The position numbers are program-made. Positions 30,001-33,000 of a DNA stretch of 64,000 nucleotides are shown in pieces. Origin of the DNA: a plasmid. How positions within the stretch are numbered: the stretch's first letter is position 1; the number at the start of each line of letters is the position of its first letter. The stretch lies in the NCBI RefSeq assembly GCF_056746865.1, contig NZ_JBWKMP010000005.1. One strand, given 5' to 3'.

Positions 30001-33000
30001 AGTATTATCACTTTCAAACCAGCCATCATGACGGGTAAAATTGCCACCAAGCGCCTTAACAATATCATTCGCTACTGCGGGTTTTTCTGCGATAAAAAGT
30101 TTCATTTTGTTATCCTTTACATTGAATTAATCTTTTGGCACAACGGATAGCACGTTCTTCTGATACTGCCTGTTGCCAGTTATCTTCACTTACTGGATGT
30201 CTGAATCTGCGTTCACAGCCATTAAAAGCAAAAATCCCCTCACGGTTAAGTATATTAGTTGCAATATCCTGGTCTTTAATTCTCAAAAAGGCTGTTACGG
30301 CAAAACCAGAATACGAAGAAATTTTTGAAATGATGCATTCATCAGCTTTTATTAACGCGGCAAAAGGAACTATCTTTTGATGACCACACGAAATCAGAGG
30401 GAGTGTGTGAATATCATAATAAGCTATTGAATGACAATCCATGCGGGTATCATCAATAGCTGCCAGCCAGAATCCTGTCTGGTCTTTTATTTTTCTGCTA
30501 ATATCTGAATCTGAAACACCAGGATTTAATAAATATCCACCATAACAGACATGGAAGGGGTGAGCAGATTCATCAATATCAGGAAGTTCTTTTACCGGAT
30601 TTTCTTTCCAGTCCTTCAGAACACCGAATTCAAGAGCATCCAGCAAAAACTTTCGTTCAAATCCATCAAGCAATGCATATTGCATGTTAAACCTCTCAAA
30701 GAAGCTCTGATTTGTTGACCTCATGGTGAACCAGTTCACCATTGCGTAAGACAAACAGGTAAGAAAACTTTCTTTCCTTATCTTTCAGTCAGTTTTTGTA
30801 TTCAGAAAGAATAAACACCCAGTCATCGGTGCTGTAATGAGATGCGATGACTCATTATCTTTTTAGTGATGAGTTGATTATTTTTAAAATATGCCTGCCT
30901 TTAATTAGCATGTTTCTGGAAACAGCCTGATTACGAATACCTCTCATCTGGTCAAACTGATAGGTTAAATCATGTTCTTTTCGTGAAAGTCCAAGAGTGG
31001 CTCTTTCATTATCCATCAGGACTGAAATTGCAATATATTCTCCAGATGCACACCAGTCTGCATAACTGGCAACGCAATGTTCCATCTCCTGACCTTCCTG
31101 ACACAGAGCATCAAATGTAATTAATTCATTTACACCGTTATCAACTTTCTGCCAGTTTATCCCAGTTCCTTTCCATTTTGGGATTACGGGAATAACGTTA
31201 TTCTTCACTTGTCGCGTCCATTCATCAGATAGTCTCCAGAAAGAAGGCCACTCCTGGTTTTTATGAATTAACCGTTCTTCTGCTAACAACCAGTCAATTG
31301 CATGACACAACTGATTCGTTTCCATTTCCCAGCGTGATGTTTGCCTGGATTCAGTATTACGGTCATAAAAGCCAATGTTTTTAAATAAATCACGATGATA
31401 TTCTAGCCATTTTGAGCATATACGATAAATATCATTTTCTTTTTCTGAGTAAGCTCGAATGCTAATATAATCGATAATCCAGTAAATTGCTCTCACAGGA
31501 TAGTTCTTGATAAGTGGATGGCGTAATAATCTGACTGTAAATCTGAATGATGCATTATCATGTTTATCATTTAAAGCATATACTAATGACAAACTAACAT
31601 GTCGTAAACTTCTGAACTCACCATAACTAAGTTTGCAGGGAAAACTGATTTTTTCATATAACTCTTTTGTCTTTCCAGATAGTATAAACTGACCATTTTT
31701 ATGTTGTTGTCTTAGACGACCAACCATAGGCCACAATCCGAAAAAATCCATATCATTCACAATATGGATTCGCTTTGAAAAATCCAGATAGTCCTCAAAT
31801 AATGCCTGACGAATTGAATTGTAAGCTATCGAACAATGTGAAGCTCTGGCATATTGTGCAAATATCTTTTTATCTACCATTATCCATATAGCTTTACTCA
31901 ATGCTTTTGAAGCATTAAATTCATTATCCACCCCTATAATTTTTAATGCTCTCTGATAAATTTTGTTTTTTATCTCTGCGAGTAAAATATGTCTGCTGAT
32001 ATATCGTGTATTATAGGGGTAGTTGAATGATGCTATTTTACCAAGGCAATGAACAATGTCATGTATTCCATACTCATATGAGTAATATACATTGGATGGA
32101 TATAGTGTGGAAATATAACGACTCTCACTGTTTTCCTCTTCCTCTCCAATGCGTAACAAATAGAGTTTGTCTTCAATTGAATATCCAGCCTCAATCAATG
32201 ATTTGATGATGTAGCTAATCGCATATTTTAACCAGTCGTCCATGTCGTATGCAGATTTTTTAGACCAGAATAAAAAAATCTTACCAGGAAATGAATTTCT
32301 TCTGGTCCATACCCCAGTGTGCTTATCTCTTAGCTTGTATCCCCACAAAGTGATTTTGTTATTCTTTTTGTTTTTTCTAATACGAAAAACGCCACAAATG
32401 ATAATGGAGATGTACTTTTCATTCTCCTCTGTTTTTACAAGACGAAGCCCCCCTGTATTTTGATAGATTTTAAAAACATCATGCAACGTAAGAATATTAT
32501 TGTCCCTTGTCTGTTGATTAATTACATACATGCCGCCCCCTGTTAAAAAGAAGCCTTTAATATTGCACAAAGATAAAAAGACAGAATCATGGCAAACCAA
32601 AAGAAGAATGCATTTTCTTGCCCCCTTAATTTCTGATACGCCATTCCCACGGTGGAACCGGATTTGCATCGGCCCACAAACCACGTTTTTGTTCCTGCGC
32701 TTCCCGTTGCAGAGCCGGTAATGACTCATCCACGTTGTAACGTTCATATACCCATGCAGCGCCAGACTGAACCATAAAGCGGCTGGCATCCGTGCCGTTC
32801 GTCGTGAACACATGACCGATAATGCGTCCGTAGCGGTCTTTATGTGAATAAGAGACTGTCACCTGTTTACCTGCAACCAGAGTTTTAAGCTGACTAGTTG
32901 ACCAGCGTCCAAAAGGTTGTTTCTTTTCAGGGGCATCGATGTTTATCAATCGGACTCGGATCGGAACTTCATACACAACAATTTTTGCGGGTAGTGTTTT

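Follow-up and report, generated by a model that had tools for sequence, protein, structure and literature searches.

What does pcfJ, a gene of IncI2 plasmids, do for the element that carries it? The question is raised by a 64,000-nucleotide (nt) stretch of plasmid DNA (NCBI RefSeq assembly GCF_056746865.1, contig NZ_JBWKMP010000005.1; hereafter the window), in which pcfJ occupies positions 30855..32531 on the minus strand. We propose, with a probability of roughly 0.4, that its product is a dispensable accessory enzyme with a fast-evolving target-recognition part, which works with the DNA-processing proteins of the element, above all topoisomerase III, during or after conjugation. IncI2 plasmids are a main vehicle of the colistin-resistance gene mcr-1 and carry pcfJ in their conserved backbone, and the PcfJ domain is found in thousands of plasmids, integrative and conjugative elements (ICEs) and phages across phyla. 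If PcfJ helps plasmids to settle in new recipients or, together with topoisomerase III, counters host defences, it would be among the factors that set plasmid host range and would give a handle on the transfer of last-resort resistance.

Identity of the gene

The gene is certainly the IncI2 pcfJ. Its 558 codons and stop encode a product identical to WP_000289347.1 ('PcfJ domain-containing protein'), and annotated IncI2 plasmids carry the stretch at 100% DNA identity. The long minus-strand open reading frame (ORF) extends over 30855-32813, and the start used is the ATG at 32531. This is the RefSeq start, 23/23 full-length homologues align from the same methionine, and a Shine-Dalgarno-like GGGGG run, read from the sequence, lies 4 nt before it (32536..32540, minus strand). 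The 558-residue frame proposed in the initial annotation is therefore present, with a start backed by all three lines of evidence. Discounting the first 94 codons of the longer frame likewise fits the RefSeq and homologue start, but only about 63 of these codons overlap nuc (32626-32813), the others falling in the 94-nt spacer between the two genes.

The gene had also been described as an orphan lying between topB and nuc. Both genes do flank pcfJ, though not directly, as a 191/214-residue ORF (30110-30754) separates it from topB. The term orphan does not apply: the DNA matches 732 plasmid records, chiefly from Escherichia, Salmonella, Klebsiella and Shigella. A word-indexed search yielded 32 full-length clusters, nearly all from Enterobacterales and with identities as low as 42%, and an exhaustive profile search recovered 2,298 representative clusters at E<=1e-3 (194 at E<=1e-10), with many proteins of ~550 residues. 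The gene and its family label are already known from RefSeq and published plasmid maps, pcfJ being labelled in a map of an IncI2 mcr-1 plasmid (PMC13431907). As an ordinary, already-annotated gene, pcfJ has its value in family-level leads. What may be new at that level is the synteny with TopB, the operon shared with RtcB and PrfH, the Acr-family gene that pcfJ overlaps on pCF10, a fold resembling half of a GNAT domain, and a front half that evolves fast while the module is conserved.

A conserved C-terminal module

The Pfam family PF14284 (PcfJ-like) matches residues 457-536, with an E-value of 5.9e-7 (29.8 bits) for the whole protein and of 4.6e-8 for the C-terminal fragment. A resemblance of the C-terminus to PcfJ, suggested with low confidence in the initial annotation, is thus confirmed by the profile search. 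PF14284 also matches 60/60 members of our alignment A2 (best E-value, 3.9e-17). Because distant homologues start matching only at profile positions ~395-405, the widely conserved unit is residues ~400-558. This PcfJ module (residues 399-558; 30858..31337, minus strand) consists of two long helices joined by a K424-N425-Q426 loop, followed by an alpha/beta core.

The family signature, E479-G480-x4-H485-C486-x3-Y490 ... R510-x-T512-L-G ... Q528-x2-G531-x2-N534, is near-invariant. Its core (E479-G480-QEM-E-H485-C486-VAS-Y490-ADW-C494, the 'HCV' motif) is encoded by 31050..31097 on the minus strand. Over 164 sequences, conservation reaches 100% at E479, C486 and Q528, 99% at H485 and T512, 97% at N534, 95% at Y490 and C494, 82% at V487 and 77% at G531; G480, R510 and W438 are also nearly invariant, and the K424-N425-Q426 loop is strongly conserved. 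The E, G, H and C residues are invariant in alignment A2, and the signature is found in alignments A1, A3 and A4 as well. The H-C-V motif, which we take to be part of the PF14284 description, is present as H485-C486-V487 in IncI2 PcfJ and within 'RHCVGS' in the PcfJ protein of pCF10. The earlier statement that the protein has no recognisable catalytic motifs does not stand, as a near-invariant polar signature runs through the family. Judged from conservation, this polar set probably marks an active or ligand-binding site and not a purely structural protein.

Searches of PDB sequences with the full-length and module profiles returned nothing, PHROGs gave only a weak match to the HC motif (phrog_3169, of unknown function), and the word-indexed search with the module profile, examined for domain fusions, gave PF14284-only proteins. 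PTP-type C-x5-R phosphatases, HNH and GIY-YIG enzymes were rejected from the order of the conserved residues alone. A zinc site shared by C486 and C494 was also rejected, as the two residues lie 8 positions apart in the same helix.

The PcfJ product is a cytoplasmic three-part protein. In the full-length AlphaFold2 model (mean predicted local distance difference test score, pLDDT, 78.8), a beta-rich N-terminal domain (residues 13-171; 32019..32495, minus strand), which has no Pfam or PDB sequence match, is followed by a helical middle region spanning residues 180-445 and by the alpha/beta C-terminal domain. The part of the middle region that precedes the module (residues 180-398; 31338..31994, minus strand) is all-helical in the secondary structure of the model. 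The N-terminal domain contains a hypervariable insert (residues 117-180; 31992..32183, minus strand), which is missing in some homologues (P0023, P0024 and P0027).

Synteny with topoisomerase III

Long-form relatives, for instance those of Providencia (NZ_CP114581), pF003, Aeromonas pO23AP3, Pantoea, Hafnia and Vibrio, share the three-part organization of IncI2 PcfJ and a length of ~550-610 residues, with an identity of 22-45%. In 10 of 14 independent long-form loci, all from gammaproteobacterial plasmids and ICEs, a topoisomerase III gene lies within 5 kb, always on the same strand. The offset of topB from pcfJ is +753 nt in the window, where topB maps to 27940..30105 on the minus strand (TIGR01056, 539.9 bits against a cutoff of 515.75). 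It is +7 nt on the Providencia plasmid, where H-NS follows, +5 nt in Pantoea, and +124 nt in P. aeruginosa pF003, where SSB, TraL and mobC follow. Offsets of +106 nt and -131 nt are found in two metagenomic backbones, and of -97 nt in Hafnia, -1.9 kb in Vibrio, +4.8 kb in Aeromonas and -1.5 kb on a short contig. Both orders (pcfJ-topB and topB-pcfJ) occur, and the intervening and flanking genes vary, the latter encoding an autotransporter, TrbM, Hha, H-NS or SSB; Hha/H-NS, TrbM or SSB genes are often near. Because gene order and flanking genes differ between loci, this synteny argues for a functional link between pcfJ and topB.

Other DNA-processing and transfer genes also adjoin pcfJ. ICE copies lie directly upstream of the TraD coupling protein gene in Halomonadaceae and downstream of a MobP relaxase gene in Ottowia, other long-form copies follow a DUF6012 gene and are convergent with DnaB, one follows the gene of a VWA_CoxE protein, and an ssb gene immediately precedes PcfJ on the enterococcal plasmid pLG2 (PMC3084688). 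The 914-926-residue gene upstream of pcfJ in loci L006 and L009 encodes an autotransporter, not a relaxase. Confident homology to a transfer-accessory family, which the initial annotation had set against its own defence reading, is found insofar as PcfJ proteins form a family that is named from the conjugation region of pCF10 and typically encoded beside TopB, coupling-protein or relaxase genes.

DUF6012-family proteins were observed near long-form PcfJ in three loci (L008:7345-7974, L012:402-1016 and L016:429-1061). In pF003 the DUF6012 gene lies 4.7 kb upstream. In the other two, which are ICE- or plasmid-like contigs, it is immediately upstream, and pcfJ converges with a gene for the DnaB helicase.

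Proposed role and position in the IncI2 backbone

In the role that we propose, the PcfJ module would hold the active site of an enzyme, in the simplest case a thiol-based Glu/His/Cys centre, on a scaffold resembling the first half of the GNAT fold, and the variable N-terminal part would select the target. The gene neighbourhoods suggest that PcfJ may act on DNA or on a DNA-bound protein alongside topoisomerase III (and SSB or a nuclease in other elements), during plasmid processing, replication or establishment after conjugation. It would aid survival of the element in new hosts, and would not be required for mating or for DNA transfer itself.

Several points weigh against this role. Our literature search found no published test of PcfJ function. 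Synteny with TopB is confined to gammaproteobacterial conjugative plasmids and ICEs with VirB/Trb-type (P-type) transfer genes and could partly reflect shared backbone ancestry, and no TopB is encoded within 10 kb of the more distant PcfJ proteins. The high ratio of non-synonymous to synonymous substitution rates (dN/dS) and the insertion sequence (IS) elements found in pcfJ are also expected of a decaying gene. The location of the gene in IncI2 plasmids, finally, speaks against a role at early entry, as set out below.

Relatives of IncI2 PcfJ occur on plasmids, ICEs and phages; the IncI2 host is a conjugative plasmid with a MOBP relaxase and an MPF_T transfer system. The region analysed in the window matches complete IncI2 plasmids at 100% DNA identity, and most of these carry mcr-1. 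On the reference record pD90-2, one strand carries mobC (nikA), the LPD7-domain relaxase gene (nikB), mcr-1.1 and pap2. The other strand carries a hypothetical gene, hha, a type IA topoisomerase gene, a hypothetical gene, the gene for WP_000289347.1, a further hypothetical gene, the shufflon recombinase gene, pilV, and the pil and type IV secretion system genes. The pcfJ gene belongs to this conserved backbone. In the window, the co-directional accessory string rci-orf-nuc-pcfJ-orf-topB-hha lies at the far end of the pil/tra region and converges on nikB (18845-23158), with mcr-1 at 24449-26074. The IncI2 order is oriT-nikA-nikB-(mcr-1, pap2), followed by hha, topB and pcfJ on the opposite strand, and pcfJ sits 7.7 kb past nikB.

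In MOBP plasmids, according to the RP4/R64 paradigm, the relaxase side enters the recipient last. From this paradigm and the gene order, IncI2 pcfJ would lie on the late-entering, relaxase-distal side, on a strand that could not be transcribed from the incoming single strand. Leading-region genes in the sense of Samuel et al. (2024) are transferred first, lie next to oriT and use the transferred strand as template. IncI2 pcfJ, with its cluster downstream of nikB, lacks this arrangement, whereas the PcfJ-TopB-SSB cluster of pF003, located upstream of mobC and pointing towards it, has it by position. The position of pcfJ relative to the transfer origin is not fixed across the family.

The likely oriT of the window is the intergenic region upstream of nikA (18180-18500), bounded on its other side by a minus-strand gene. 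As is typical of an oriT, it is rich in GTGTGGG(T/C) repeats, and it also contains a pair of short perfect inverted repeats (18391-18428 and 18434-18453).

PcfJ in pCF10, phages and leading regions

The main alternative, if a rather doubtful one, is that PcfJ is an anti-defence effector, i.e., an enzyme that neutralises host immunity independently of TopB, for instance by modifying a defence protein or a sensed nucleic acid, with fast-evolving N-terminal and middle parts that track a host target. This reading overlaps the role proposed above. Circumstantial support comes from the family level, beginning with the Enterococcus faecalis plasmid pCF10, which carries the founding pcfJ gene. There (L055:10874-12984; record 35873-37983), pcfJ comes last in a minus-strand operon that is convergent with the relaxase gene, and its first 10 nt are shared with the end of the gene before it, annotated in RefSeq as 'Cas9 inhibitor AcrIIA9 family protein'. 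A DpnD/PcfM gene is part of the same operon, and an ArdC-like protein is encoded in the same transfer region; ssb and thermonuclease genes are found elsewhere on pCF10.

The PcfJ proteins of pCF10 and IncI2 have the same C-terminal domain (E-G-x-x-[ML]-x-H-C-V ... T-L ... Q-x-x-G-x-x-N). The pCF10 protein keeps the E, G, H, C, Y, T, Q, G and N residues of the signature and lacks C494 and R510. In both plasmids, the relaxase gene is closely followed by pcfJ, which faces it from the other strand, and both plasmids carry a thermonuclease gene. In contrast, pCF10 PcfJ is shorter (447 versus 558 residues), no sequence similarity was detected between the two proteins beyond the C-terminal module, and pCF10 pcfJ, which overlaps the AcrIIA9-family gene, has no nearby TopB, whereas IncI2 pcfJ lies between nuc and topB.

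Further evidence of this kind is provided by locus L004 (that of the VWA_CoxE protein), where AcrVA2-like and Mrr_cat genes lie within 4.5 kb of PcfJ, by the leading-region arrangement of pF003, and by the concentration of the elevated dN/dS outside the catalytic module. Phage PcfJ proteins are shorter (~300-380 residues) and encoded among small uncharacterised genes, near a weak Lar-like match in L017 and at one end of the Shewanella phage 1/4 genome record, and short PcfJ genes adjoin diversity-generating retroelements, as also reported elsewhere (PMC5758913). A 19-member 'PcfJ-like' family is listed by Samuel et al. (2024) in the sheet 'Other unknown leading families' (PMC11541004). In the same supplement, however, the family has no sequence or structure match to known anti-CRISPR or anti-restriction proteins (PMC11541004). 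IncI2 pcfJ itself is outside the leading region, the Acr-family names of the neighbours are homology labels only, and an AcrIIA9-like gene is absent both from the window and from every other pcfJ locus.

ArdC provides a functional analogy only. Like PcfJ, it is a large, non-essential plasmid protein with an enzyme-like C-terminal domain, encoded near relaxase, coupling-protein or SSB genes. ArdC has an HExxH metalloprotease domain and a single-stranded DNA-binding domain, neither of which was detected in PcfJ, and the two proteins have no sequence or fold relationship.

Predicted fold of the module

The fold of the module raises the idea of an acetyl- or acyl-coenzyme A (CoA)-dependent GNAT-type transferase, in which a divergent GNAT core would use Q528-x-x-G531 as the pyrophosphate-binding loop and acylate a protein, an aminoacyl-tRNA or a small molecule. 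We regard this as unlikely. The model of residues 398-558, built on 60 diverse sequences, has a pLDDT of 93, and its core follows the order beta-alpha-alpha-beta-beta-beta-alpha, the last helix ending the protein. Q528 and G531 stand at the end of beta4 with the spacing expected of GNAT motif A (Q/R-x-x-G-x-G/A), but the final G/A is replaced (by R in the query), N534 being conserved instead, and the near-invariant His-Cys pair has no GNAT counterpart. Moreover, whereas a complete GNAT fold runs beta1-alpha1-alpha2-beta2-beta3-beta4-alpha3-beta5-alpha4-beta6 to form a V-shaped CoA cleft, the model stops at the helix equivalent to alpha3, leaving beta5-alpha4-beta6, half of the cleft, with no counterpart.

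Foldseek searches of the module against PDB revealed nothing significant (best E-value, 0.46; best GNAT match, E-value 0.58, probability 0.41), and the N-terminal and helical parts gave nothing above the GNAT matches of the C-terminal domain in the PDB fold search. Sequence profiles found no GNAT match in PDB or Pfam. Because Foldseek found nothing significant in PDB, the domain was not filed under GNAT; the absence of half the fold and the lack of a solved relative by sequence profile led to the same decision. 'GNAT-like' is, for this model, a lead and not a classification.

Selection and dispensability

Substitution rates were compared between the window (30855-32531) and the R721-like IncI2 plasmid p4422IncI2 (L052:6001-7677). 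The dN/dS of pcfJ is 0.71, far above that of its neighbours (rci, 0.05; hha, 0.08; topB, 0.10; nuc, 0.20; adjacent ORF, 0.26). Amino-acid changes are unevenly distributed, as 39 of 46 fall in residues 126-331 and only 4 in the 160 codons of the PcfJ module. Many of the differences between the IncI2 lineages lie in the hypervariable insert. Higher dS clusters in the 126-331 stretch too, a pattern suggestive of recombination or diversification in the centre of the gene. Across the family, variation peaks in residues 117-180, where mean pairwise identity is 0.45 and gaps amount to 18%, versus identities of 0.63-0.75 elsewhere.

In pA31-12, pcfJ is broken by an IS3-family element after about codon 152; in E. 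albertii pEA7_3, an independent insertion of this family follows about codon 251. Because these plasmids are otherwise complete, pcfJ is dispensable for plasmid maintenance. Further interrupted copies occur among the IncI2 matches, and the match to NZ_MH522409.1 is in three pieces with no annotated gene.

Both the high dN/dS and the disruptions would fit a functionless, decaying passenger kept through linkage to the nuc-topB region. This reading is quite improbable, given that most IncI2 records with the gene have the 558-codon frame intact in 35%-GC DNA (in 473/551 matching records, a single location covers at least 80% of the protein), that the frame and 100 invariant columns persist in full-length homologues of as little as 42% identity, that the C-terminal module is conserved, and that synteny with topB is kept across different backbones.

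Base composition

The GC content of pcfJ (34.8%; 31% at third codon positions) is markedly below that of the window (43.1%), at the 0.24th percentile of windows of the same length, in agreement with what had been noted by eye in the initial annotation. Its description as an AT-rich single gene is half right: pcfJ is AT-rich, but the two adjoining ORFs share the trait (30110-30754, 38.4%; 33188-33871, 34.2%), with topB, nuc and rci at 44-47%. In 11/11 enterobacterial-type loci, over more than 50% protein divergence, the GC content of pcfJ is 6-9 points under that of its flanks; the deficit is not seen in the Pseudomonas, ICE and Flavobacteriia loci. Because it holds across all the enterobacterial-type loci, low GC content is a stable lineage trait of pcfJ and no mark of recent foreign insertion. 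Hha or H-NS genes recur near pcfJ (loci L005, L006, L014, L015 and L020). Because hha or hns is often adjacent to pcfJ, its low GC content may be linked to H-NS/Hha silencing.

A second low-GC block (~15800-18200) holds the lowest-GC 1,677-bp window of the whole sequence (34.2%, starting near 16500). A TraL-like gene and the ORFs next to it fall within this block, which presumably belongs to the leading side of oriT.

The AT-rich accessory position had suggested a defence or anti-defence factor in the initial annotation. The composition argument does not support this step, as low GC is a lineage trait of a backbone gene, and no PADLOC model matches; the anti-defence or establishment side of the suggestion retains the circumstantial family-level support described above. 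A defence or exclusion system directed against phages or competing plasmids, for which one can cite the general observation that AT-rich plasmid accessory genes can be defence genes and the VWA_CoxE protein that precedes one relative, is very improbable, as neither pcfJ nor either of the unannotated ORFs beside it matches a PADLOC-DB 2.0 model at E<=0.1, pcfJ is a single gene with no sensor or effector partner conserved across loci, and its presence in phages and next to genes of conjugative DNA processing is more in keeping with offence or maintenance than with host defence.

PcfJ in RNA-repair operons of Flavobacteriia

A PF14284 protein (E-value, 7.8e-17) heads an RNA-repair operon in six Flavobacteriia genomes, three of Flavobacterium (L036:9077-12538, L039 and L047), one of Polaribacter (L040:9320-13480) and two of Tenacibaculum (L041 and L043). 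These chromosomally encoded proteins of 450-480 residues have only the C-terminal module in common with IncI2 PcfJ, and the signature (E-x5-HC-x3-Y-x3-C, T, Q..N) is visible in them. An RtcB-family RNA ligase gene lies 23-61 bp downstream on the same strand in 5/6 loci; in Polaribacter, PrfH is encoded 71 bp after PcfJ and RtcB 1.4 kb downstream. A TPR protein is encoded in 6/6 loci, and the release factor PrfH in 3/6 (TIGR03072, 225.5 bits against a cutoff of 166.65). The repair of ribosomes cleaved by ribotoxins is the task of RtcB-PrfH modules, of which the TPR gene is a known accessory (Burroughs and Aravind 2019, PMC6514570); PcfJ is unmentioned in that paper (PMC6514570). In 20001-43000, the sole part of the window searched, phmmer matched no ORF of 70 residues or longer to RtcB or PrfH.

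TopB and RtcB, the recurring partners of PcfJ, both break and rejoin nucleic-acid strands. A broader and more speculative idea, which we consider doubtful, is that PcfJ proteins constitute an unrecognised enzyme family with a truncated GNAT-like scaffold and a Glu-His-Cys centre, partners of strand-breaking and -joining enzymes (topoisomerase III, and RtcB-PrfH in Flavobacteriia), which repair or protect nucleic acids in conflicts between mobile elements and hosts. IncI2 pcfJ would then be a counter-defence or repair factor for the host range of mcr-1 plasmids. If the link with RtcB and PrfH reflects shared chemistry, the PcfJ family would be a further player in the repair of RNA and ribosomes in bacteria.

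Other features of the window

Next downstream of topB lies hha (27665..27892, minus strand), which encodes an H-NS co-regulator (NF008191, 117.7 bits against a cutoff of 90). The small AT-rich ORF between pcfJ and topB (30110..30754, minus strand; annotated as 191 residues) is separated from topB by 4 nt and has no family match; Pfam returned nothing for it, and no homologue is found at the other pcfJ loci outside IncI2. Upstream of pcfJ, the co-directional nuc gene (32626..33141, minus strand) encodes a thermonuclease-family protein with an N-terminal signal-like sequence and weak NCBIfam thermonuclease matches; its counterpart in p4422IncI2 (L052) is annotated as 'thermonuclease family protein'. 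Neither pcfJ nor the two ORFs beside it had a meaningful NCBIfam match, and scans for promoters and terminators across 27.4-35.2 kb gave counts not above those of shuffled sequences.

Between nuc and rci (33853-35067) lies the AT-rich 227-residue ORF (33188-33871, minus strand), which features an N-terminal hydrophobic segment and a weak Pfam match to the SAVED-fused 2TM effector domain (Saf_2TM, E-value 0.0088). This ORF is absent from p4422IncI2, where nuc directly succeeds rci, and a relative (E-value, 4e-11) is encoded just upstream of pcfJ on the Providencia plasmid (L014:6109-6633).

Three ORFs of exactly 402 residues map to 2301-3509 (minus strand), 6345-7553 (plus strand) and 11059-12267 (plus strand). 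The one tested, 6345-7553, matches the RNA-guided endonuclease TnpB of the IS200/IS605 type (NF040570, 390.8 bits). Similar 178-residue ORFs (5906-6442 and 10620-11156) overlap the starts of two of the 402-residue ORFs. The three are assumed to be copies of one element, which, if true, would be an unusual load for a plasmid of ~60 kb.

Upstream of mcr-1, an IS30-family (ISApl1-like) transposase is encoded at 23253-24253 by two ORFs of 169 and 164 residues, which overlap by 4 nt and between them correspond to both halves, N-terminal and C-terminal, of the IS30 transposase model; it could be a frameshifted copy.

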